From: Candidatus Woesearchaeota archaeon B3_Woes
GTDB taxonomy: Archaea > Nanobdellota > Nanobdellia > Woesearchaeales > B3-WOES
DNA length: 64,000 nucleotides
Assembly: GCA_005222965.1 (NCBI GenBank)
Contig: NJBG01000001.1
Location: 82,323 to 146,322 of the forward strand
Direction: 5' to 3'
Of this stretch, positions 5,651 to 63,738 are shown one piece after another. Below the pieces are notes generated by a model, which worked only from the letters and a program-made list of their open reading frames with translations, made no database searches and had not been told where the DNA came from. Each line of letters opens with the position of its first letter. Position 1 is the stretch's first letter. A program made the position numbers and the translations under genes.

Positions 5651-6250
5651 CTATCTACTAGAATCAGCTTGTCTTTCAATTTCTAATTTCTTTGTAATAG
5701 CATTAGAATTATTGCTTAAATTAAAAGCATTAATAATCTCTTCTGATAAATATTCTTCAATAGATTTCTTAGAATTAAATGATTTATGATAAGCACCTTG
5801 TGTCATATATCTTAAAGCCAAGTCAATTCTCCTTTGTGGAGCACACTCAACTGCTTTTGGATATCTTGCTCCACCATATTCAATTGTTATGATTTCTTCA
5901 CGCTGAGCAGCATTTTCCAAAGCTTTAACAAAAACTTTTATTGGATTATCATTAGTTCTTTTTTCAATAAGTCCTAATGTTCTTTCAACAATATCATATG
6001 CTTTATGGCCTTTTCCAGTGGTTCTTCCGCTTGATTTAAAGTGTTTTCTGCTTTTATGTCCAGGAACCATAAGCTTGTTCATTAATCTCTCAACAATAAA
6101 TACTTTAGACTTATGAAACCTATTTCCAGCGTATTTTGCACCTGTTCTAGGAACAATTTTAGGACTTAAGGTTATATAATTTCTTAAACCAATATCTTCT
6201 ACTTTAATTCCTTCAGTAGACCATCTGTTAAAGGCTTTTATCTCATTCAT
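5651..6250 (-). CDS. rps7: 30S ribosomal protein S7 (uS7)
   Basis: S7 signature region and conserved S12-S7 gene pair with a 4-nt overlap. Confidence 0.85.
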
Positions 6251-6762: not shown

Positions 6763-7731
6763 TTATCTTTTCTTTAGTCTAATTACTAACACTACGCCTA
6801 CAATAATCACTACAAGATAAGCTAATCCTAGTAATAATGCAGCGCCATATTGGTCCATAAAGGTTTCTTCTTCAACTACTGCTGGAGTTGTAATAACTGG
6901 TGTTGTTGGTTCTTCTACTATTGTAACTTCTTCTTCCTCAGGTTCTTCTGTTGGACAATCTTCAACCTTTAATGTAAAGGGTTCTGTTTCTCGTTCATCT
7001 CCGTCATCATATTCAGCTTTAACATAGAATGTATATGTTTTTGCTGCTGCATCTGCTAAATCTAAGACAAATGATCTCCTTGTTTTTATGTCGTCTTCAT
7101 CATCACCAGCATCCAAATCAAATGATGATTTTTCGCTGATATCTAATTCTGTGTTATAAACAGTCATTTCAACGTCTTCATCGCTTGTACCAATATTCCA
7201 TAAAGTTACTGATACTTCTGTTGTTCTTGAGCATTTAAGTGTCTCATAATTAACAACAGGTTCTTTCATCATTAACTTATGTCTCTTTTTTTCAACATTT
7301 ACAGTAAAATTAAAAGTTTCTGTATATCTAGTGCCATTGTTTTCGTCATCACCTTCTACAGTTACATAAATGTCATAACTTTGGTCATCAACAGCCAATG
7401 GTATTTCAAACTCAAAATCTATACTGTCATCCACATTATATTCTAAATCATCAATATCATCGTCATCATCAAGGTCATCAGATCCTGAGTCATCAATATC
7501 TTTTATGACAACTTCAACATTAATGTCCTCAATATCAACATAAGTACCATTTTGATTATAAATATTAGTTACTTCCACTTCAACATCAAAAGAATCTCCT
7601 GGTTCAACATCATCATCAAAGCTTACATCTACTTCATAGTATATGCCTGTCTCAATTCCATCTGCAGAAACAATCCCTGCAAAACATACAACAAGCAATC
7701 CTATTAGTATACTTAATATTGTTTTTTTCAT
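6763..7731 (-). CDS. Secreted highly acidic surface protein with C-terminal transmembrane anchor
   Basis: N-terminal signal/TM, long D/E-rich body, then PTTPVITTPAVVEEETF, a hydrophobic helix and RLKKR. Confidence 0.6.
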   Translation of the reverse strand: MKKTILSILIGLLVVCFAGIVSADGIETGIYYEVDVSFDDDVEPGDSFDVEVEVTNIYNQNGTYVDIEDINVEVVIKDIDDSGSDDLDDDDDIDDLEYNVDDSIDFEFEIPLAVDDQSYDIYVTVEGDDENNGTRYTETFNFTVNVEKKRHKLMMKEPVVNYETLKCSRTTEVSVTLWNIGTSDEDVEMTVYNTELDISEKSSFDLDAGDDEDDIKTRRSFVLDLADAAAKTYTFYVKAEYDDGDERETEPFTLKVEDCPTEEPEEEEVTIVEEPTTPVITTPAVVEEETFMDQYGAALLLGLAYLVVIIVGVVLVIRLKKR

Positions 7732-51634: not shown

Positions 51635-54600
51635 TTATTTATTTCTTATAATTACTGCACCTACTGCAAATATTACTAATCCAAGGATTAAAACAATTAA
51701 AATACTAAGTAATATCATATATTCAAAAGTATCTGTGAATTTTGTTTTTGGGACTGTTGGTTCTGGTTCTGTAACAACTGGTTCTTCTGTTATTGTAACT
51801 TCTTCCTGTTCGGGTTCCACAACGCCAGGCATTTTACACTCGGCTTTTGTTAAGTATAATGTTTCAGTTATTTCTTCATCATCATACTCTGCTCTAACAT
51901 TTATTATATAAGTTCCTTCAGCTAAATTACTTGGAGCAGTAAAAGCTTCACCAATTGTTGCTTTATACTCGTCTCTATCATATGCTTTTAACTCAACAAC
52001 CTGAGTACTACTTATCTCTAATTCATTACTAGATATAGATAATTCAACATCTTCATCTTTTTTACCAATATCTTTTAAACCAACAACAATATCAAAACTA
52101 TCATAACATGAGATTGTTGAAGGACTTACTACTGCTGAAGATATAATCACTTCATGACTCTTTCTTTCTATCTCTATTGTTTCTGATTGATGTAATGTGC
52201 ACTGTTCTACTCCATCATCATCCTTTCCACAAGCCTCTACATAAACAGTATATTCATCTCCGTCTTTTGCATCTGTAGGCATCTTAAATGTGAATGTAAA
52301 TTCTTCTTCATCTCCTTCATCTAAATCAAAATCTTCGTCATCTTTTAGTTTATCATTATCTTCATCCTTAACAACATCGCCATCTTCATCTAATAGTTTT
52401 ATTTCAAGCTCAATATCTTCAATATCTAAATCACCATCATTTTCAACTTCAACTACAATTTCTACTATTTCATCTGGTTTTGGATTATCCTCATCTACAT
52501 CAACATCCTTTATTTGTAAAACTCCTGTTCCAGCAGGTGGTGGAGTTTCTGGTTCACTATCTGTCCTTACCTTGTAAGAGCTAAATCCTGTTACATTAAA
52601 TACAACTGTTCCTGAACCAGTTGGATAATCTGTAAAACTAATTAATGTGCATGATGTACACTCTGTTATAATCTCATCAGGGTTTGTTGTAAATTCATCA
52701 CTGAAATAGATTACTGGTTCCTGGTTATATGTCAAACTAGATAATGTTATTGTTGTATTAGGTATATCAAACATATCTAACACACCAGAATCAATTGAAA
52801 CAATAGTTTTTTCTATTTTAACAAAATCATCAATATTAACAATATCCTTAAGATTGATTACTGCATCTCCAAAATCAATTTTTCCATGACTGTTTTCTAT
52901 TGTTAAACCTGTGAAGTTTGCAACGTTTTCTTCAGTAACATCTTGGATTGTACCACCAAAAGTTGTTATTGGAACTGTACTAACTTCAATACTCCATGAA
53001 GCACTATCAAATATATCTGTTGAATTTTGAACCTCAACTAAAACTTCATAAGTTCCAGCTGTTGTTTCAACAAATGTAAATGAATCTCCAGAGCCTTTTT
53101 CAATTGCATTAACAAACCATTTTATAGTTGGGGATATGTTGTCTGGATCAATAACATTAACACTTAAATCTTGGTCAACTCCATCTCCAATTAATAAGCT
53201 TCCTTCTGCAGGATTTGTATCATTTATATAAGGTATATCATCAAGTTTTTGATTTACATTTACTGTTATATTTTGTTCAGCATCTGCTTGTCCATCACTA
53301 ACAACAAAAGTTATTTCTTCAGAACCAAACCAGTCTTGATCAAATGTTGAGATTGTAGCTACATTATCTCCTGAAATTTCTACTTTTATATTTTGGTTAT
53401 TAGCAACACTCCATGTTAATTCGTCGCCATCAACATCAAATCCATAATTATCTAAGTCAATTGAGTCATCATCTTCACCTTCATCAAATTCTACACCAGG
53501 TATTGTAGCATTGATAACAGGTGGATCATTCTTTTCTAAAACTTCAACATTAAATTGTTCAAAAACATCCCCTACACTCATGTTTATAACTGAAATTCCA
53601 AATAAATCATCTAATGGAGTTCCACAACTAAATATACCGTTGCTTGTAACATTACAGTTAATTAAACTATCATTCTCTCCAACAATTTCATAAACCACTC
53701 CTGTTGTATTTCCAAAAGTATAATTCTTTAAATCAATCGGTGACCATGATGGAGATTCACTCTCATTAACCTTAAGAACACTGTTCAATGTACTAACATC
53801 AAGGCAAGCTTCAACATTAACCTCAATAGAATCTTCTATTGTGTATCTTGGAAGGCCTCCCCTATACTTTATTACTATATCATATGTAATATCGGAATCA
53901 CCAAGAGCAAGTACATCAAAATCAAATTCTTTCTGTTCTGCCCTTATTAGCTCATAATCTGTTTCACCAATCAAAGTCTCTCCGTCATAGACTGAAATAG
54001 TTACTTCTTCATCCCAGTCACCAGTATTAGCTAATGTCAATAGTAAGGTTGTATCTCTATCACAAGTCAAATCATCTTTTGACCATTCCATACCAATTAA
54101 TTCTACTCTATGGAAATCCCTATCAACATTGAAGTTAATTGTTTTCTCACTCCAATAGTCGTTTTCAATAAGGTCTTCTCCTATTACCTCTAAATCAAGA
54201 GTAAATGAAGGCTCTAATGTATCGTAAGGTATATCAAAACTAAGAATAATTGTCTCTGTCTCCTGACCCTCAAGGTTAAATTCCTCACTGTCTGATCCAA
54301 ACCCAAAAGGACTTAATTCAGTAGAAGATATAATCTCAATAATCTCATTATCTACCTCTGCAGGAAATCTATTCAAAATAGTATACTCTACATCAAGAGT
54401 ATGGCCTGGTTTAATCCCATCAATAGTATCTCCATCTTCAACTGATTGTCCATCAATTGTAATATCAACAATATCAAGAACAGGAAGTACTGTTAAATTA
54501 AACTCCCGTGTTGTGAAATTTGATCCTTGGTCTGTTACTTTTATTTCAACTAATTTTAAGCCAAAATGAGTAGCGTTTGGTGTCCATCTAAATTCTCCTG

Positions 54601-56410
54601 TAGATCTATTAATTGTAGCACCACCAGGGTTAGTAGTAATAAAAAATTCTAAAGCACTTACATTACTATCAATATCATGTGCATCTGCATCATAAACATA
54701 TTCAATAGCTTCAATTGCTGTTAAGTTTGGTTTTGTGGTAAAATAAGGTGCGTCATTAACATTATTAACAATAACTGTAACATTTACAGTCGAAGAAGCA
54801 TCTCCTTCATCAGTAGCTGTTAATGTAATATTCCTTTCACCATACCAATCTTCATCAGCTGATATATTTAATACATGAGTTTCGTCATCAATATCAATAT
54901 TAAGATTTGCTGTATTTCCTCCAACACTCCATGAAATATTTTCATCTGCTGACTCTACATCACCAACAAAAAGGTCTAAATCATAATCATCAAAATATTC
55001 TTCTTCATCAAATTCAATATCCCCTATTGGATCAATAACAGGTATATCATTAACAGGATATACTATCAAAGTAAAATTCTGCATATCAAAATCTGTAGCA
55101 TCTTCTACTTTTACAGATATATTCCAGTAGCCAACTTCAGCATCATCTGGTGTAAAGTTTATAAGCCCTGTAATAGGATCAATAACCATTCCAGGTGCAT
55201 TTTCAAGTAAAGAATAAGTTAATGTATCATTCTCAACATCTGTTGCTTCAACATCATAAAGATATGTATCTTCTTCATCCACTTCAACAGGAGCAGGTGA
55301 AATAATAGTGGGTGCATCATTAACTGGAGTTACTTCAATACCAACCACTTCTTCAATTGACCCATAACCATCATCTATAAGTATAGTACAGTTTGTCATA
55401 CCATTCCAATTATCTGTAGCATTCATCAAAAGGAATGTCTCATTTACTATCTCACAATCTACTTCATTTTCTTCAAGCACACTATAAGTAATATCATCTC
55501 CATCAGGATCAAAAACCTCCTCGCTAAGGTTTCTCTCAACAGAAGAGTCTTCATTTACTAAATAAAAGAACAAACTAAAATCAGCCTCAGGCAACCTATT
55601 ATTAGTTGCATTGAATGTGCAAGGACCTTTATGGAAATCATCTGAATCTATATTTGTATCAATACCATCATGAATCCTAAATACACATTCATCACTAGGA
55701 TCAGTTGAATAGCCATCGGGTGCGTTATCTGTTGTATTACCATCATCATAATTTCCATAAGTAACTTGATCAATGATTTCTCCTAAATTATCATAAAGAA
55801 CTAGCATGCCGTTATTACTCTGTGAACCGCTTGGATTTAAAATAATAAGGTGGTCTCTTGAAGGGATTACTCCTTCTAATAACTCAGTTGCATTAGAGCC
55901 ATCAATTAAAGATAAATTCCAATTAGTAATATTTATATTATGCATAGTTGGATTGTACAGTTCAAACCATTCATCAGCAACACCAATAGCACTATTATTA
56001 TCCCAGTCTGTTCGAGGCTTAACAACAAATTCATTAATCACAACCGTAGTATAAGCAGTCAAGTTTAAATGAGTAATACTAGTATCATTATATATTGCTG
56101 TTTGATCCGCCTCAACTCCATTAATTTTAAATGTAACAGTATAACCCCCATAAGAAGAATTTCCATTAATAACCATGCCACTATTCCAACCTTCTTGAGT
56201 TAGGTTATGGGTGCCATCAGCTACGCTTGGATCATCATCATTTTGAATAAAAGCCTCAATTAATGTCCCAACAGAAGCATTTACACCATTATACATAACA
56301 GTCCCAGTTAAAATCATTGGTGGTAGCAGTTGTCCATAAACAACTGAAGCTAAAGAAATAGTGAATAATAATAAAATTAACACAATACTTTTTTTAAAGT
56401 TTTTAGTCAT
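51635..56410 (-). CDS. Giant (1591 aa) acidic cell-surface protein with cadherin-like/Ig-like repeats and C-terminal TM anchor
   Basis: Signal peptide. Repeated PVNDAP, PVNDIP and NVNDAPYF modules. D/E-rich. C-terminus is TEPEPTVPKTKF, a hydrophobic helix, then RNK. Confidence 0.8.
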   Translation of the reverse strand: MTKNFKKSIVLILLLFTISLASVVYGQLLPPMILTGTVMYNGVNASVGTLIEAFIQNDDDPSVADGTHNLTQEGWNSGMVINGNSSYGGYTVTFKINGVEADQTAIYNDTSITHLNLTAYTTVVINEFVVKPRTDWDNNSAIGVADEWFELYNPTMHNINITNWNLSLIDGSNATELLEGVIPSRDHLIILNPSGSQSNNGMLVLYDNLGEIIDQVTYGNYDDGNTTDNAPDGYSTDPSDECVFRIHDGIDTNIDSDDFHKGPCTFNATNNRLPEADFSLFFYLVNEDSSVERNLSEEVFDPDGDDITYSVLEENEVDCEIVNETFLLMNATDNWNGMTNCTILIDDGYGSIEEVVGIEVTPVNDAPTIISPAPVEVDEEDTYLYDVEATDVENDTLTYSLLENAPGMVIDPITGLINFTPDDAEVGYWNISVKVEDATDFDMQNFTLIVYPVNDIPVIDPIGDIEFDEEEYFDDYDLDLFVGDVESADENISWSVGGNTANLNIDIDDETHVLNISADEDWYGERNITLTATDEGDASSTVNVTVIVNNVNDAPYFTTKPNLTAIEAIEYVYDADAHDIDSNVSALEFFITTNPGGATINRSTGEFRWTPNATHFGLKLVEIKVTDQGSNFTTREFNLTVLPVLDIVDITIDGQSVEDGDTIDGIKPGHTLDVEYTILNRFPAEVDNEIIEIISSTELSPFGFGSDSEEFNLEGQETETIILSFDIPYDTLEPSFTLDLEVIGEDLIENDYWSEKTINFNVDRDFHRVELIGMEWSKDDLTCDRDTTLLLTLANTGDWDEEVTISVYDGETLIGETDYELIRAEQKEFDFDVLALGDSDITYDIVIKYRGGLPRYTIEDSIEVNVEACLDVSTLNSVLKVNESESPSWSPIDLKNYTFGNTTGVVYEIVGENDSLINCNVTSNGIFSCGTPLDDLFGISVINMSVGDVFEQFNVEVLEKNDPPVINATIPGVEFDEGEDDDSIDLDNYGFDVDGDELTWSVANNQNIKVEISGDNVATISTFDQDWFGSEEITFVVSDGQADAEQNITVNVNQKLDDIPYINDTNPAEGSLLIGDGVDQDLSVNVIDPDNISPTIKWFVNAIEKGSGDSFTFVETTAGTYEVLVEVQNSTDIFDSASWSIEVSTVPITTFGGTIQDVTEENVANFTGLTIENSHGKIDFGDAVINLKDIVNIDDFVKIEKTIVSIDSGVLDMFDIPNTTITLSSLTYNQEPVIYFSDEFTTNPDEIITECTSCTLISFTDYPTGSGTVVFNVTGFSSYKVRTDSEPETPPPAGTGVLQIKDVDVDEDNPKPDEIVEIVVEVENDGDLDIEDIELEIKLLDEDGDVVKDEDNDKLKDDEDFDLDEGDEEEFTFTFKMPTDAKDGDEYTVYVEACGKDDDGVEQCTLHQSETIEIERKSHEVIISSAVVSPSTISCYDSFDIVVGLKDIGKKDEDVELSISSNELEISSTQVVELKAYDRDEYKATIGEAFTAPSNLAEGTYIINVRAEYDDEEITETLYLTKAECKMPGVVEPEQEEVTITEEPVVTEPEPTVPKTKFTDTFEYMILLSILIVLILGLVIFAVGAVIIRNK

Positions 56411-57417: not shown

Positions 57418-57999
57418 ATGTCCACAGATGAAAACATTAATAAAAAATTAACCCCTGTATTAGAAAAATATAGGGAATCTTTCTCTAATAAAGTTATAGA
57501 AGAAGGAAAGACTGATTCTGATATATTGATGGAAGTATTTAATATTACTCATGAGGAAAAGATTCAAAATAAGCAATATTGGGGAAGAGAACTTGGTAAG
57601 TGTTGGGAACGTTTAGTTCAATCTGTATTTTCTGAACGAAAAGATTATAGTTCAGGTATAAAAGAAGGATCTGATGAAATTTGTGATTGTGTTATTGGTA
57701 ACATGGCTATTGAAGCAAAATATAGGGTTGGTTCTGGAGATTCTGGTACTTTAAAAAAATTTAAACAATATGCACAAAGATTAAAAGATAAAGGGCTTGA
57801 TCCGATAATGATTTTTTTGAGAGAAGATAATCTTCCGGCAGCTATAACAGCATGTAGAAATGGAGGTTGGACAATCATAATGGGGGATGAGTGTTTTAAG
57901 TTTATTGAAAAAGAATCTAATTTTGATTTAAAGGTAGCATTAAAATCTCTTAAAGGAAAATATGATATAAAAAAGAAAAAACAAATTACTCTTTTTTGA
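57418..57999 (+). CDS. Putative type II restriction endonuclease, PD-(D/E)xK-like
   Basis: SDEICDCVIGNMAIEAKYR fits the D-x9-ExK pattern. Convergent with the methyltransferase, 3' ends overlapping by 14 nt. Confidence 0.5.
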   Translation: MSTDENINKKLTPVLEKYRESFSNKVIEEGKTDSDILMEVFNITHEEKIQNKQYWGRELGKCWERLVQSVFSERKDYSSGIKEGSDEICDCVIGNMAIEAKYRVGSGDSGTLKKFKQYAQRLKDKGLDPIMIFLREDNLPAAITACRNGGWTIIMGDECFKFIEKESNFDLKVALKSLKGKYDIKKKKQITLF

Positions 58000-59347
58000 G
58001 AACAATCATTCTATCATAATCAATTTTATCGGCAAAAGACACATTTCTGTCAATATTCATACTCCTCTGTTTTAGAATTATTTGAAATTGTTTCTCTTTT
58101 TTGAATCCAACAGATTCAGCTATCTTTGATAGAAATAGTGATGTTGGAACAAAAACTTTTCTGATATTATTATCACCAATAACTATACAATATCTTCCAC
58201 CATTTTTCAAAACTTTATACGCTTCTTCAAAATGTTTTTTCATATCTAAAAAATATTTATAAGTAACCCTCGACCTTAATTTACTTTGCGTATTAGAATC
58301 GTATGCATTATATATTTCTTCGATAATTTTATCTGTTTCATCGATTCCTATTTGACCTAGTATAGAATATTCTTTTTTTGGTATCCTCTCTGTACCAATC
58401 TCATAATTATATAAATTTAATCTATCTTGATCGCTTTTAACTAAATCTAACCAATGCACCCTTAACCTATTAGCCCAAATATAATCCATTGCATTAATGT
58501 ATGGTGGAGATGTCACTATTAGATCAACCTTATCAATATCTTCTGGTAAATTTATTTCTCTAGCGTCATTTCCAATTATTTTTGCAAAATTAGATATGTT
58601 TTGTTCTTTAGAGAACTCAGAAATATATTCTATATATTTTTCTGAGAAAGACGAAAACAAATCAATAGTATCATTCTCTGAAAGTTGTTTTATATTTCTC
58701 CAATCTTTCCTCCTAGCCGTTAACATTTGTCCGGGTGCAATATAAGATGATTTTCTAACAGCCATAGAAAAAGATACTAAGAAAAAGTCTCTAATATCTT
58801 TATCTTCTATTTTATTTACATATTTTTTTATCTTAGCTAATCCTCTAATAACATTTTCATTAAACCAAAAATCAACTCCTCTAAAATTAGGTATTGGTAA
58901 ATCAGAACTAGAATCGTTTTTGATATTATCCATCAATGAGTTATATTTAGATCGTAATTTGTTTTCTTCGATTGATGTTGATTTTACTTTGCTAACTAAT
59001 CTAGCGTAAGGATTATAATCAATACCTAAACAATTTCTTTTTAACTTCTTTGCTTCTATAAAAGTTGTTCCTCCGCCTATAAAAGGGTCTAAAATAATAT
59101 CGTTTTCTTTAGAAAAATTTTTAATTGCCCACCTTGGTAACTCAGGTATATATTTACAAGGATATAATGCTATATTATGTACGTCTCTTTTGCTTTCTCT
59201 AAAAATACTTAAATAAGCATCATCTTCAATATTCAAAGGAATATCTCCATATATTTTCTTGAGAGTTATTTCTCTTCCATTATCATTATGAACTTCTTGT
59301 TTTTGTTTTATATGTGAAGAAAATTCACCTAGATTTTTTTGTTGCAT
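57986..59347 (-). CDS. DNA methyltransferase, N4-cytosine/N6-adenine family (SPPY type, likely N4C)
   Basis: Motif I LDPFIGGGTT near residue 90 and motif IV IVTSPPY near residue 283. Confidence 0.75.
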   Translation of the reverse strand: MQQKNLGEFSSHIKQKQEVHNDNGREITLKKIYGDIPLNIEDDAYLSIFRESKRDVHNIALYPCKYIPELPRWAIKNFSKENDIILDPFIGGGTTFIEAKKLKRNCLGIDYNPYARLVSKVKSTSIEENKLRSKYNSLMDNIKNDSSSDLPIPNFRGVDFWFNENVIRGLAKIKKYVNKIEDKDIRDFFLVSFSMAVRKSSYIAPGQMLTARRKDWRNIKQLSENDTIDLFSSFSEKYIEYISEFSKEQNISNFAKIIGNDAREINLPEDIDKVDLIVTSPPYINAMDYIWANRLRVHWLDLVKSDQDRLNLYNYEIGTERIPKKEYSILGQIGIDETDKIIEEIYNAYDSNTQSKLRSRVTYKYFLDMKKHFEEAYKVLKNGGRYCIVIGDNNIRKVFVPTSLFLSKIAESVGFKKEKQFQIILKQRSMNIDRNVSFADKIDYDRMIVLKKE

Positions 59348-59350
59348 TTT

Positions 59351-59602
59351 TTAATTTTGTATTTTCATTCCTTTAAATCCTTCTTCAGGATTCTTTAACT
59401 TATATAACCTTTTTCTACTATCTTTATCATCAATATTAACTTCCAACCAACCAGCCTTTCTTAAATCTGAAAAGAAAACATTAATACCTGCATCGTCTTT
59501 CAAAGCTTTTTTAGCCTGTTCAAAAGTAAACTCTTTATCTTTAAATTTATTCCAGAGAATTGCGTATCGTATTTGGATCCATTTAGGGAGGGGTTTTGTC
59601 AT
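59351..59602 (-). CDS. Hypothetical small protein (83 aa) co-oriented with the methyltransferase
   Basis: Ends 4 nt before the methyltransferase start codon. Confidence 0.45.
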   Translation of the reverse strand: MTKPLPKWIQIRYAILWNKFKDKEFTFEQAKKALKDDAGINVFFSDLRKAGWLEVNIDDKDSRKRLYKLKNPEEGFKGMKIQN

Positions 59603-59644
59603 AAGTAAATAGCTTATATATTAAGTATTTAAAAGTTTCTGTTT

Positions 59645-60994
59645 TTAATGATTTGGAATAATTTCCAAATAATGTTTACAGGAACTTTCTGCTAACTTAT
59701 TAAACGCAGCCCTAACACTATCATTTTCTATTGCTTGTTGTGTTTCTAATACTAGATTATCCATTGTATTAAAATAGTGTGTTCTTGTTAATTTTGATTT
59801 TGTTTTCCCAATAAATGTTGAGAAGTCTCTCCCATTATATTCATTACAACAACCATAAGGACAAGGGAATTTTTTCCCATGAGAATCATATATTTTCTTC
59901 AATGCTCTCAGTGAAATCATAGAAAGAAAATAATAATAAAAATATTTTCCTTTCAAAAATGAGGGTAAGTCTGTATTTTTATAAGAAACAAACATGTTTT
60001 CTACAATCCCATTTGAAGGTGTAGAAAAACCATCAATTCCTGCTTGTAACATAAATAAACCCAAAGAATCAACATTTAATGCAAAAACTGGAATTTTAAA
60101 CTTCTTACTTACTACCTTTAAACCTTTCAAAAATCTTTTAAGGTTGTCTCTTTGAATTCCAGCATTTCTACTATCTAAACCATAAGAATCAACTATCTTA
60201 AAGAAAAAGAATTGAGGTTGCTCTTCATTTATATATTTCAATATTTTATCTAAATAATCATATTCTTCAAGTGTAGACGTCTTTAAAACAAAGTTTGCAG
60301 CAGGTATCCATCCTTCGTGAGTTTTACAAATTTTTTCTGTTTCTTTATTTATTTTTATAGCCATATCTAAACTCTCAGATACTTCGGGAATAATCAGATT
60401 AGATGGAGCTAATAATATTTTAGAACCCAACCTTTTGCTTCTTTGTAAAAATTTCAAAGTGTGGTTAAATTCTTTTCCATGAAGTTTATGAATATACTCT
60501 CTAAATAATTTAATTTTATCAATTCTTTTTTTGTTTCTACTTTCATCACCTTTCTTTTTACCAATACCTATTTTTTTAATTTGTTCAACATATTCTAATG
60601 GTAAATTTTCAATATCTATTTGGTCAGGATCAACCAAACTTAAATATGAAGATTCTCCTAAGGGATCGATTATTATAACTTTGTTTTCTATAATTTCTAA
60701 AAAACCATTTTCTTTCTTGGTTCCGTCAAGATTTAATTGTACAGACCTTGTTTTTTTTGGTAAGAGTAATTTCTTAACATTATTAAAAGGGATAATAACC
60801 CCTTGAAAACAATTTTTTTTAAACTTGTTATTTTCAACCCAATCTGATAAAAAATCAACATCCCAACTTGATTTAGGTTCAACAAAAAAGCAAGGAGTAC
60901 TGAATATTAAATCTTTTTTTGGTAAGTTTACATGAACTAATCTTCTTCTCACACCACTTGCTTCTTTAATTTCATTAATTTCGACGTTTTTCAT
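59645..60994 (-). CDS. Hypothetical protein (449 aa) with C-terminal Cys cluster CPYGCC...H
   Basis: No clear family. GIDGFSTPSNG followed about 60 aa later by a CxxxCC-N22-H cluster. Confidence 0.55.
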   Translation of the reverse strand: MKNVEINEIKEASGVRRRLVHVNLPKKDLIFSTPCFFVEPKSSWDVDFLSDWVENNKFKKNCFQGVIIPFNNVKKLLLPKKTRSVQLNLDGTKKENGFLEIIENKVIIIDPLGESSYLSLVDPDQIDIENLPLEYVEQIKKIGIGKKKGDESRNKKRIDKIKLFREYIHKLHGKEFNHTLKFLQRSKRLGSKILLAPSNLIIPEVSESLDMAIKINKETEKICKTHEGWIPAANFVLKTSTLEEYDYLDKILKYINEEQPQFFFFKIVDSYGLDSRNAGIQRDNLKRFLKGLKVVSKKFKIPVFALNVDSLGLFMLQAGIDGFSTPSNGIVENMFVSYKNTDLPSFLKGKYFYYYFLSMISLRALKKIYDSHGKKFPCPYGCCNEYNGRDFSTFIGKTKSKLTRTHYFNTMDNLVLETQQAIENDSVRAAFNKLAESSCKHYLEIIPNH

Positions 60995-60998
60995 TTTC

Positions 60999-61499
60999 TC
61001 ACCTTATAATTCTTTTAGTATGTAATATTTTCATTATATCATCAAATCTTTCTTTAAATGTATCTAATTCATCTAATGGAATAATTATACCACCTTTAGA
61101 TTCTATCTCATTATATATATCTTCTTTCTTTTCTTGGATATATAAAAATTTACCAAGACGATTTGAGATAACATAAATTTCAAAAAACTTATTTTGTAAT
61201 ATTATTTTATTTTTATATATAGGATCTAAAAGATTTCCATTAGAAAAAAGTAATCCATTTCTTGAATCTGGTGGATATTGGTAAATTTCCCCTTTTGTGA
61301 TTAAGTTTTTGATATGTTTAGATATTGTGTTTCTATGAAAAAAAGTGTTTTCTTCAATCTGTTTCATGTTTATTCCAATATTAGTATTTAATTGGATTAT
61401 CTCTTTGATTTTAGATTCGGCATACTTCTCTCTTTCTTGAGGAGGTTTTTTTGAATATAAATCATATTCTTCTAGTTCAGGTATCTTTATCGTGTGCAT
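60999..61499 (-). CDS. Winged-helix DNA-binding protein (166 aa)
   Basis: NTISKHIKNLITKGEIYQY is a wHTH recognition-helix pattern. First gene of the co-oriented 166-449-83-MTase string. Confidence 0.45.
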   Translation of the reverse strand: MHTIKIPELEEYDLYSKKPPQEREKYAESKIKEIIQLNTNIGINMKQIEENTFFHRNTISKHIKNLITKGEIYQYPPDSRNGLLFSNGNLLDPIYKNKIILQNKFFEIYVISNRLGKFLYIQEKKEDIYNEIESKGGIIIPLDELDTFKERFDDIMKILHTKRIIR

Positions 61500-61686
61500 A
61501 TATATTGTGAATAGAAAGGTATTTAAATACTTTATGGTTTTCTAATATACATATTGTGCATTTACGTTGTGCACACCAAAAAACGAAACATTTATATACT
61601 TAAGTGATATACTTATTTAATAAGTAAATAACTTATTAATATAAATAAGGCAAGAAGCCCGAAGGCTTCCTGTCGGAGGAACCAAA

Positions 61687-62871
61687 ATGCACGACGAAGC
61701 ACAAAATAGTTCTCCAATAGGAGAAAACAATTCAGAGGTTAAAAGCTTTTCTGAATTAAAAGAACAAAATGAAGAGTTGCATAACATTGCTAAAGAAATT
61801 ATGTCAAGAATGGGAGAAGTCGAACAAGGCACTCATAAGAAATTTATACATGAGGTCATGGAAAAGTACAAAGATGTACAAAAGAAAAAAGATGGTAAAT
61901 ATAGTCAGGATTGGGCTTCATACAATAAAGTTCAGTCAAAAGAAAAACTCCTTTTAATGAACATTCTAGATGAACTTCTTAATTATGTTGAATTTCCTGA
62001 AGATAAGAAATGTGTTGGTAGAAAGCCTGTTGATTTAAAAGAGAAAATATTCTACACAATATTACAAGCCTACAATCTTAAAAGCGGTCGTAGGTGTATT
62101 TCTGACTTAGAGATAGCACGAAAACTAGGCTATGTAAACAAGACACCACATTTCAATACAGTATTGAATTGTCTTAAAGATCAATCTCTAACTATATATT
62201 TAAAACATTTAATTGAAGTTTCTGGTATTCCATTAAAACAAATAGAATCTGACTTTGCAGTTGATGCTTCTGGATTTTCCACATCAGAGTTTGGTAGATG
62301 GTTTGATGTTAGAACAGGCTCTAATTCCGATAAAAGAAAGTATAGGAAATGTCATATAACTTGTGGCGTCAGAACTAATATAATTACTGCTGTGAATATA
62401 ACAAAAGGAACAAGGTCAGATAGTCCAGAGTTTCCTGATCTAATTAAAAAAACAAACAGAATTTATGATATAAAAGAAGTTTCCGCAGATAAAGGGTATA
62501 CTTCCCGAGAAAACCTCCAAGCTGTTTCTAATATTGGGGCTATACCTTTTATACCTTTCAAAAAGAACATTAAGCCAAATACAAGGAGTAAGAATGTAGA
62601 CATTTGGAGAAAGATGTATATGTTCTTTACTCATTATCCAGAAGAGTTTGATCATCATTATCATAAAAGAAGTAATGTTGAGACTTGCTTTCATATGATT
62701 AAGAGGAAGTTTAACAGCCATTTGAGAAGCAGAACAGAAACAGGACAAGATAATGAAGTATTAGCTAAATGTTTATGCCACAATCTTTGTGTCTTGGCTC
62801 AAGAAGCTATGGAACTAGGAATTGAACTTGATTTTAAAAAATGTGCAGACATAGAGGTTGCACATAATTAG
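61687..62871 (+). CDS. DDE transposase, IS4/IS5 superfamily (DDE_Tnp_1-like)
   Basis: FAVDASGFS, VSADKGYTS and YHKRSNVETCFHMIKRKF (D, D, E-containing blocks). A GGAGGA ribosome-binding site is 8 nt upstream of the ATG. Confidence 0.75.
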   Translation: MHDEAQNSSPIGENNSEVKSFSELKEQNEELHNIAKEIMSRMGEVEQGTHKKFIHEVMEKYKDVQKKKDGKYSQDWASYNKVQSKEKLLLMNILDELLNYVEFPEDKKCVGRKPVDLKEKIFYTILQAYNLKSGRRCISDLEIARKLGYVNKTPHFNTVLNCLKDQSLTIYLKHLIEVSGIPLKQIESDFAVDASGFSTSEFGRWFDVRTGSNSDKRKYRKCHITCGVRTNIITAVNITKGTRSDSPEFPDLIKKTNRIYDIKEVSADKGYTSRENLQAVSNIGAIPFIPFKKNIKPNTRSKNVDIWRKMYMFFTHYPEEFDHHYHKRSNVETCFHMIKRKFNSHLRSRTETGQDNEVLAKCLCHNLCVLAQEAMELGIELDFKKCADIEVAHN

Positions 62872-62904: not shown

Positions 62905-63738
62905 TTATTTTTTAGTCTTAATTTTTTTATTGAGAAAATACCCTGCAATACCCAGAACTATAACTACTACAAGTACAGACAATCCAAGTCTAAAATTCTC
63001 TTTAGCTTTAAACAAACCTATTACTGCTCCAGTTATAGCACTAAGTCCTGTTTTTTCTGGTGTTGTTTCCTCTGTTGTCTCAGCAGGAGCTGTTTCCAGC
63101 CCTAAACCTTCATCTGTTTCTTCTTCGGGCTCTTCATTACTTTGAATTTGTACTTGTGGTGGAAGAACATAAGTACAGCTTACCGTTTGTCTGTAAGAAC
63201 CGTTATTACATTCTGTATCAGCACATAGTTCTGTTTGTTTACCATAAGAAGAACATGGAGAAATTGGCTCACACACATAATTAGGTTTACAGCTGGAGCC
63301 ACCACCGCCTCCTCCGCCTCCTCCTCCTCCGCCTCCTCCGCCACCTCCAGAGCCATCTTCTGGACTTGAAGGTTGTTCTGGTTGTTCTTGTATTATTACA
63401 TTTAAATCAAGATTATTTGTAGTGCCCCATCCTCTTGTTGCATTTCCTGCTTCTACATCTTCAATTTTAAAAATGATAATATCATCTATAAAACCAGACG
63501 TAACAAATAGTGTATATTTACCAGTTTCATTTAAATTATAAGTACTATCTAATGTTTCATTAACATAAACTTGTATTTCAGTTCCAATAGGAGCAGATTC
63601 ATTATTAATTTTTACATTCCCATAATATTTATCTGGTAATGGTGGTGTGGATGGAACTGCACTTACTAAACTTAAAGAAAATATTACAATAAATAAAATT
63701 AAAATTTTTTTAGTCATTTTTTCTTCTTCTTTCCCCAT
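62905..63738 (-). CDS. Secreted surface protein with uninterrupted poly-Gly(17) tract and C-terminal TM anchor
   Basis: Signal peptide. DGSGGGGGGGGGGGGGGGGGSS. Cys-rich segment. C-terminus TTPEKTGLSAITGAV, a hydrophobic helix, then NKKIKTKK. Confidence 0.65.
   Translation of the reverse strand: MGKEEEKMTKKILILFIVIFSLSLVSAVPSTPPLPDKYYGNVKINNESAPIGTEIQVYVNETLDSTYNLNETGKYTLFVTSGFIDDIIIFKIEDVEAGNATRGWGTTNNLDLNVIIQEQPEQPSSPEDGSGGGGGGGGGGGGGGGGGSSCKPNYVCEPISPCSSYGKQTELCADTECNNGSYRQTVSCTYVLPPQVQIQSNEEPEEETDEGLGLETAPAETTEETTPEKTGLSAITGAVIGLFKAKENFRLGLSVLVVVIVLGIAGYFLNKKIKTKK

Follow-up and report, generated by a model that had tools for sequence, protein, structure and literature searches.

What do the tightly packed, co-oriented genes of unknown function beside a DNA methyltransferase gene in a woesearchaeal genome encode? 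We examined this question in a 64,000-nucleotide (nt) stretch of DNA from Candidatus Woesearchaeota archaeon B3_Woes (contig NJBG01000001.1; referred to here as the window, whose positions serve as coordinates), in which the genes occupy positions 59351–61499. Two of them, encoding proteins of 166 and 449 amino acids (aa), very probably form an obligate module, and the 449-aa protein is almost certainly a member of the tRNA-guanine transglycosylase (TGT) superfamily. Its family is a rare, previously undescribed branch of that superfamily and is restricted to archaea. As judged by alignment with bacterial TGTs, the guanine-recognition Asp and the nucleophile Asp have been lost in all 55 aligned members, and other conserved polar residues have been gained. 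As the best explanation overall, we tentatively favor a module in which the partner protein guides base excision or some other non-canonical form of base targeting.

The 449-aa sequence alone gave no useful match in Pfam, NCBIfam, PADLOC, or PDB, and just two close relatives were found among 5.8 billion proteins. An exhaustive HMMER search with these three sequences yielded 69 representative proteins, most of 400–460 aa, each a cluster at 50% identity among 1.84 billion representatives. Fifty-five of these proteins make up the family alignment, A2, to which all residue counts refer. A motif scan detected the TGT-like family in 4 of 185,579 species genomes. Word-indexed searching with this alignment retrieved just four proteins, and a back-translation scan of GTDB genomes with alignment A1 returned no relatives. 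No model in Pfam, NCBIfam, or PADLOC covers the family, and a literature search found no paper describing it. The family consensus comprises an N-terminal K-x-I-x-TP, an IDPxTE motif, a near-invariant Lys in a β-strand, GxDGFxEP, and LPCxCxxC...WNxxRRxH.

Proteins with the TGT fold act on tRNA (TGT and the archaeosine enzyme ArcTGT), DNA (DpdA), or protein (Cap10). The A2 profile matched the Pyrococcus archaeosine tRNA-guanine transglycosylase with an E value of 3.4e-12, through the Zn subdomain and, weakly, an N-terminal hairpin/TP stretch. Individual members matched models of the superfamily weakly: TIGR00432 (TgtA) in 17 of 55, ArcS in 6, and a general TGT model in 5. The best member reached an E value of 2.5e-6 against TIGR00432, the window protein had no match, and all scores were far below the curated cut-offs. 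None of the 55 members matched the PADLOC Dpd or NCBIfam DpdA models, and no Pfam family was matched by more than one member. In superfamily comparison, the figures were 25.1 for bacterial TGT, 23.8 for QTRT2, 20.3 for ArcTGT, 18.5 for DpdA, and 18.4 for Cap10, with the next generic TIM barrel at 13.6.

The protein is predicted to fold into a (β/α)8 TIM barrel with a large insertion after β8 that is pinned by a structural Zn site. An AF2 model built from three sequences alone had a pLDDT of 47 and was discarded. The confident model used here keeps an N-terminal three-stranded lid (strands 4–12, 15–22, and 29–33 by DSSP) that aligns with the TGT N-terminus, and the 449-aa protein ends just past the terminal barrel helix. 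The predicted Zn ligands follow the CxCxxC...H pattern, in which the His belongs to the terminal helix, and are strongly conserved: C378 in 48 of 55 members, C380 in 40, C383 in 51, and H406 in 52. The window clade has a variant Cx3CC motif (C378, C382, and C383) that, with H406, still provides four predicted ligands. These are the residues of the CPYGCC...H cluster that the initial annotation had pointed out, and they lie on the most conserved columns of the 55-member alignment, as does the GIDGFSTP segment (residues 319–326). The faint resemblance of that segment to TGT and DpdA enzymes, also suggested there, holds as homology at the superfamily level; mechanistically, however, the protein is not of the DpdA type, as Ser replaces the nucleophile Asp and the guanine-recognition Asp is lost.

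We mapped the active site by aligning the family with hhalign to a profile of six bacterial TGT sequences (local E value, 3.8e-5; global alignment with 85% probability and an E value of 6.5e-7 over 359 columns). The six-sequence profile was needed, as the Zn subdomain alone aligned to the single Escherichia coli Tgt sequence. In characterized enzymes, the general acid/base is an Asp that closes β3 (D102 in the Zymomonas mobilis [Zm] enzyme, D89 in the E. coli [Ec] enzyme, and D95 in DpdA), and the nucleophile is an Asp that closes β8 within a G-x-D-x-F-D motif (Zm D280, Ec D264, DpdA D256, and Cap10 D248). A further Asp recognizes guanine or 7-deazaguanine by its Watson-Crick edge (Zm D156, Ec D143, DpdA D130, and Cap10 D122). 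In the family, the N-terminal landmark T33-P34 is conserved and corresponds to Ec T26-P27. The general acid/base is also retained: D110, equivalent to Ec D89, is Asp in 51 of 55 members and ends strand 106–110, which is the end of β3 in the DSSP assignment of the model.

The other two catalytic positions differ. Position 198, which aligns with Ec D143, is Asp in none of the 55 members and is instead V, S, T, C, A, G, or Y. S324 aligns with the nucleophile Ec D264 and is acidic in none; here G319-I-D321-G-F-S324 is aligned with G259-I-D261-M-F-D264. D321 is Asp in 51 of 55 members, and its counterpart, Ec D261, is not known as catalytic. Residues 324–326 end β8, directly before the long Zn-bearing insertion, and position 325 is Glu in 28 members and acidic in 29, with Thr in the window clade. 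Two residues are newly near-invariant, K266 on β6 (51 of 55) and E114 (48 of 55). Position 307 (D, N, or E in 50 of 55), R404, and G349 are also conserved in the family, and by the alignment a polar residue is gained at the end of β7.

The partner protein was characterized from an alignment of the upstream proteins, a search with which gave 88 homologue clusters, with 87 members aligned. Its N-terminal half is a winged helix: MarR_2 matched 55 of the 87 members, HTH_24 matched 39, and HTH_20 matched 31, and the best PDB matches were the Zalpha and RPA32-C winged helices (E value, ~2e-4). The C-terminal motif N..G.FLYIQEK...GGIIIP...F has homologues across loci of the form F[LI]YIQEK..D.Y...GG[IL]I. 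The sole recurrent match outside the helix-turn-helix (HTH) families was PurA (PF04845), in the C-terminal region, with a best E value of 5.6e-4 and all scores under the gathering score; no PUR chain in PDB matched the partner at an E value of ≤10. PUR repeats have a β-β-β-β-α arrangement and dimerize into a single-strand-binding PUR domain. The partner signature N-x-x-G-x-F-L-x-I-x-E resembles such repeats, and the C-terminal domain may, tentatively, be PUR-like. Both proteins of the pair are basic, with median pI values of ~8.6–8.7.

A co-oriented partner gene encoding 159–181 aa lies directly upstream in every locus that we retrieved through the TGT-like protein, and the two genes often overlap or stand 4 nt apart. 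Pairing was seen in all 15 early loci and in about 67 of the 69 partner loci with enough downstream sequence. When loci were instead approached from the partner, the downstream gene was TGT-like in L019, L021, and L023 (L numbers designate individual loci), in four GTDB genomes, and in metagenome loci. At 85% partner identity, the non-redundant loci number 48. The only clear pairing exception is L059, where the partner-family gene adjoins a radical-SAM-like gene. Two loci carry N-terminally truncated TGT-like open reading frames (ORFs) separated by a gap from the partner gene, L050 (8010–8789; 259 aa) and L084 (7882–8805; 307 aa), which could reflect gene decay or frameshifts. No fusion of the partner and the TGT-like protein was found in the family. 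A longer member, P0010 (526 aa), was considered as a fusion and rejected, since its extra length is an internal insertion of ~90 aa (residues ~140–230) in the β3/α3 loop region of the barrel. This loop region contributes to substrate recognition in TGTs and DpdA.

The region upstream of the pair carries candidate regulatory elements (see the table below). A palindrome that had been noted there, and proposed as an operator for the winged-helix protein, proved real and is accompanied by a second TGCACA. These repeats behave like a conserved operator: the boxes recur ahead of the L001 orthologues with unchanged offsets (about −73 and −60), with one at −61 in L002, and a third TGCACA overlaps the start codon in the promoter region of the three close loci. 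A 17-mer test (2 found, 0.11 expected) is circular, as the pattern was derived from the same sites, and the conserved offsets are the better evidence. The position of the TATA-box-like element suggests a leaderless or short-leader archaeal transcript, for which it would act as the promoter. Farther upstream, the 24-nt block is part of an AT-rich palindrome (61590–61646) and persists despite differences in the flanking genes; it might serve as a second operator, mark the edge of the module, or terminate transcription of the divergent gene. More distant loci have other inverted or direct repeats at the equivalent place, the expected look of co-evolving operator-regulator pairs. These elements suggest that the partner regulates its own expression.

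Features of the locus and its surroundings in the window
Feature	Position	Strand	Evidence or remarks
166-aa partner protein, first gene of the conserved pair	60999–61499	−	ORF; TKJ17064.1, annotated as hypothetical
449-aa divergent TGT-superfamily Zn-binding TIM-barrel protein (predicted fold), remodeled active site	59645–60994	−	TKJ17063.1, annotated as hypothetical
83-aa small winged-helix protein, closest clade only	59351–59602	−	Weak MsvR N-terminal and HTH_34 similarity
453-aa N6/N4 DNA methyltransferase, outside the conserved pair	57986–59347	−	Pfam N6_N4_Mtase, 1.4e-23; PADLOC MTase_II, 1.5e-52
193-aa candidate restriction endonuclease	57418–57999	+	Weak ApaLI-like (E value, 0.0057) and PADLOC REase_II (E value, 0.0019)
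IS5-family DDE transposase, divergent upstream neighbor	61687–62871	+	Pfam DDE_Tnp_1, 5.4e-23; NCBIfam IS5, 4.3e-37
Two TGCACA boxes, putative operator of the pair	61555–61575	−	TGTGCACA palindrome at 61568–61575 and TGCACA at 61555–61560
TATA-box-like element TTTAAATA	61520–61527	−	~21–28 nt upstream of the ATG; conserved in L001, partly in L002
24-nt block ATAAGTTATTTACTTATTAAATAA	61613–61636	−	Invariant in the window, L001, and L002; contains an ATAAGT/ACTTAT inverted repeat

The initial annotation had described three packed, co-oriented genes. All three ORFs were confirmed, and the gaps from the 166-aa gene through the 449-aa and 83-aa genes to the methyltransferase gene are 4, 42, and 3 nt, the last having been given as 4 nt. 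As a conserved unit, the trio reduces to the 166-aa and 449-aa pair, the 83-aa gene being restricted to the three closest loci. The assignment of the 83-aa protein as a winged helix is weak (MsvR N-terminal, E value of 2.2e-4; HTH_34, E value of 0.13). Its homologue in L001 precedes an 800-aa type IIG restriction-modification enzyme, and the homologues in L002–L006 are encoded on the opposite strand, each ahead of a DarT-Macro fusion; no homologues were found in loci other than these and the window. The gene directly after it thus varies among a methyltransferase (in the window), a type IIG enzyme, and DarT-Macro. Because its homologues occur only in the closest relatives and before differing genes, the 83-aa gene travels with the variable gene and not with the pair. 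In L002 (503–1957, − strand), and likewise in L003–L006, the arrangement consists of an 89-aa winged-helix gene, 6 nt, and a 392-aa DarT-Macro fusion that joins toxin and antitoxin domains in one polypeptide; L002 is an archaeal-type metagenomic contig. Linkage to a methyltransferase, which had seemed worth checking by co-occurrence, is not a family property, as 5 of 109 nearest neighbors are methyltransferases or type IIG enzymes.

Beyond the methyltransferase gene, the candidate endonuclease carries a D-x11-ExK motif, read directly from its sequence, and its gene is convergent with the methyltransferase gene, with a 14-nt overlap. The locus is slightly AT-richer than its surroundings, and the sole tRNA gene in the window is far from it. 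The proposal that the genes lie inside a mobile element stood insofar as an IS5-family transposase gene is found divergently upstream, but no element boundaries were found: we looked for terminal inverted repeats around the IS5 gene or enclosing the pair and found none. The transposase is 43% identical to the one located after this module in L002. Two further genes flank the locus: one (51635–56410, −) encodes a 1,591-aa surface protein that contains many repeated modules and has a membrane anchor at its C-terminus, and the other (62905–63738, −) encodes a secreted 277-aa protein with a run of 17 glycines.

Identified hosts of the family are the Woesearchaeota of the window, two Bathyarchaeia, Candidatus Sifarchaeum (Asgard), and a member of the Micrarchaeaceae, and loci L019 and L021 carry archaeal marker genes. 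The GC content of the loci spans 27–52%. Neither phage GenBank records nor IMG/VR viral contigs yielded a family member when searched, and BFVD gave weak matches only.

We then took a neighbor census that covered the closest two genes to either side of the pair in 36 non-redundant loci (109 genes; raw counts without a genome background). Mobile-element genes were represented by IS240 transposases (six genes), DDE_Tnp_1 transposases (four), an IS1595 transposase (one), and tyrosine integrases (two). Other annotations counted were N6_Mtase/Eco57I type IIG enzymes (three), N6_N4_Mtase (two), Hjc/Mrr-like nucleases (two), HD proteins (two), PolB-exo-like DEDD nucleases (two), DarG models (three), and DarT (one). 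Within two genes of the pair, defense or restriction genes occurred in about one-quarter of the 36 loci and mobile-element genes in about one-third. The pair has a transposase gene as its immediate neighbor in the window, L002, L019, L021, L025, and L026. We considered whether the pair and transposase form one mobile unit and rejected this, because the transposases belong to unrelated families and show no co-divergence with the pair.

A type II restriction-modification system adjoins the pair twice, in the window and in L019, and the two are unrelated, with methyltransferases that are 24% identical. Single loci carry GmrSD, an Mrr/Hjc-like nuclease, or an NYN nuclease with an AAA_15/21 ATPase near the pair, and one has a PD-(D/E)XK nuclease with a dCTP-deaminase-like gene. 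In L024 from Bathyarchaeota UBA185, a dCTP-deaminase-like gene (5745–6188, +; Pfam DCD, 4.4e-27) is located ~1.7 kb upstream of the pair; dCTP deaminases can be defense or housekeeping genes. A small PolB-exonuclease/RNase-H-like (DEDD) gene is divergently upstream of the pair in L001 (1047–1538, −), and 2 of the 36 loci have one. The pair thus resides in variable regions rich in insertion sequences (IS) and restriction genes. The restriction and defense setting behind the earlier suggestion of a defense or DNA-modification role recurs in independent loci, but the role itself is read from this context; on balance, we consider a conflict- or defense-related role probable.

How might such a pair work? 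The nucleophile of the characterized active members is absent and other polar residues are conserved, so the family probably performs a different chemistry on a base or nucleotide. Because both the guanine-recognition Asp and the Asp nucleophile are lost, we consider classical double-displacement base exchange unlikely, and we infer that the enzyme acts on a DNA or RNA base by chemistry other than Asp-mediated double displacement. The module that we propose is a two-gene archaeal operon, which in the window also takes in the small winged-helix gene and the type II methyltransferase gene, opposite the candidate endonuclease gene. In it, the basic winged-helix protein, perhaps with a PUR-like single-strand-binding repeat, would probably repress its own promoter via the TGCACA boxes. 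It would probably also form a complex with the 449-aa protein and bring it to nucleic acid, presumably DNA. The 449-aa protein would then flip out a purine or modified purine and cleave its glycosidic bond, either hydrolytically or through K266. The result would be a base-excision, restriction-like module that may act in genome conflict.

Excision is favored because the exchange nucleophile is gone while the acid/base Asp is kept and a Lys and a Glu are newly conserved. It is also favored because glycosylases that defend against phages with 7-deazaguanine-modified DNA have been reported (bioRxiv 10.1101/2025.10.29.685425) and because modification-dependent nucleases (GmrSD and Mrr-like) are among the neighbors. 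Even so, excision rather than exchange is a tentative and somewhat doubtful choice. A more specific form of the proposal, which we regard as unlikely, is that the pair is a restriction system in which an enzyme descended from TGT or DpdA runs "in reverse," excising 7-deazaguanine-type or other modified purines from viral DNA. The winged-helix/PUR-like partner would melt the DNA, and the bond would be cleaved by hydrolysis or with Lys266 as a Schiff-base nucleophile. If so, this would be the first DNA glycosylase with a TGT-fold TIM barrel, and it would provide archaea with a countermeasure to viral DpdA-type modification.

Several observations weigh against partner-guided base excision. We know of no precedent for a TGT-fold glycosylase. 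The catalytic-residue map comes from profile alignments whose confidence is no more than moderate in the central part of the barrel, position 198 included, and the placement of K266, E114, and D110 around one pocket is deduced from barrel topology. Glu at position 325 could rescue exchange chemistry in the members that have it, and with the guanine-recognition Asp lost, the ligand need not be guanine-like. The PUR match is below threshold and confined to 10 of 87 partner members. In L059, an 81-kb metagenome contig, the partner gene (6989–7531) stands alone, with no TGT-like sequence in six frames. Finally, most neighbors have no annotation, and the defense figures are raw counts.

A rather unlikely alternative is base exchange in DNA or RNA of the kind performed by DpdA, in which the pair would insert 7-deazaguanine or an analogue using a non-canonical nucleophile (Glu 325 in half of the family, or D321). 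The winged-helix partner would target DNA, as DpdB does for DpdA, and the mark would shield the host or a mobile element from restriction. However, mutation of either D95 or D256 abolishes DpdA activity (PMC10164549), and two of the three Asp residues are absent here in 55 of 55 members. No PADLOC or NCBIfam DpdA model matched; no genes for preQ0 synthesis and no QueC-like or DpdB-like genes are among the 25 commonest Pfam families of the 109 neighbors; and the viral collections searched, in which stand-alone DpdA is common, yielded no member of the family. (Our tblastn search with an E. coli Tgt query did not reach phage DpdA.) If the protein were instead a pseudoenzyme, it could resemble QTRT2 as a non-catalytic binder of a base or nucleic acid and, with the winged-helix protein, control neighboring restriction or defense genes. 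An analogy exists in the wHTH-WYL (winged HTH) regulators found upstream of diverse defense systems, but in most loci the neighbors are on the other strand or are not defense genes, and we consider this quite unlikely. Toxin-antitoxin or abortive-infection activity appears distinctly unlikely as well. In such a pair, the TGT-like protein would attack tRNA, for instance through base removal, and the small DNA-binding protein would neutralize it and repress the operon. Yet partner and enzyme are equally conserved, a second domain that possibly binds nucleic acid distinguishes the partner from typical labile antitoxins, and the TGT-like protein has no PUA or other tRNA-binding domain.

The neighborhood could also reflect carriage by IS-rich elements, with the pair serving an accessory function such as anti-restriction or DNA processing tied to transposition or integration. 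Transposases and integrases are the commonest annotated neighbors, six loci have a transposase directly beside the pair, and the range of GC content and the spread over four archaeal phyla imply horizontal transfer. Against this, the transposases are unrelated in family, vary in position, and have not diverged in step with the pair; terminal repeats enclosing the two genes are absent; and viral contig collections yielded no family member. Such an accessory function is improbable. Least credible of all is a housekeeping enzyme of tRNA modification or nucleobase salvage with a dedicated transcription factor. The TGT superfamily is best known for tRNA modification, but this family is very rare and patchy (the 69 clusters and four species genomes noted above) and occurs in variable regions, and its proteins are missing both a PUA domain and two of the catalytic Asp residues.

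Among known systems, the family is homologous to the TGT/DpdA/Cap10 group and would work most like it, but two catalytic features that define the group are absent. Bacterial TGT and QTRT1, together with QTRT2, the non-catalytic paralogue of QTRT1, share ~10–11% identity with the family, which lacks the equivalents of Ec D264 and Ec D143. The GGLAVGE base-binding motif of bacterial TGT is replaced by a strand with a near-invariant Lys. Unlike these enzymes, the family is near-obligately paired with a winged-helix protein, patchy in distribution, archaeal, and not syntenic with queuosine genes. ArcTGT (TgtA) is the best match at the sequence level and shares archaeal hosts, but the family lacks the C-terminal C1–C3/PUA tRNA-binding domains (449 aa versus 582 aa), and its catalytic Asp set is incomplete.

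The DNA- and protein-modifying branches differ in other respects. The three active-site Asp residues are reported to be invariant in TGTs and DpdA, and DpdA keeps all three, has no N-terminal lid, and carries the family-specific insertions Ins1 and Ins2 (PMC10164549). The family described here has the lid and lacks two of the Asp residues; the neighbor census shows no DpdB, DpdC, or preQ0 genes, with no ParB-like, DUF328, or QueC/D/E genes among its 25 commonest Pfam families. Cap10 of type IV CBASS keeps the nucleobase-reading D73 and D122 and the nucleophile D248, and the family lacks the equivalents of D122 and D248. Cap10 also works with the QueC-like Cap9 and with a CD-NTase whose N-terminus bears a conserved M(G/S)G(G/S)GG motif; no such neighbors were found here. 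Conjugation of a partner N-terminus in the manner of Cap10 was considered and rejected, as the partner N-termini are variable and not Gly-rich and there is no QueC-like gene.

The defense glycosylases Brig1 and Dag1/Dag2 share with the family the proposed logic only, namely excision of a modified base from invader DNA by a product of variable islands. Their folds (uracil-DNA glycosylase-like and other glycosylase folds) are unrelated, and the likeness is a speculation about function with no homology. In the DPANN, Bathyarchaeia, and Asgard genomes that carry it, whose defense biology is poorly known, the pair is found alongside restriction systems and transposons. A small, well-delimited family, a confident structural model, and clear targets for point mutation (D110, E114, K266, and the Cys/His Zn site) make the question directly testable. 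The family would add a fourth, archaea-specific branch to the TGT-fold proteins, and it would be categorically new only if its chemistry turns out to be new.

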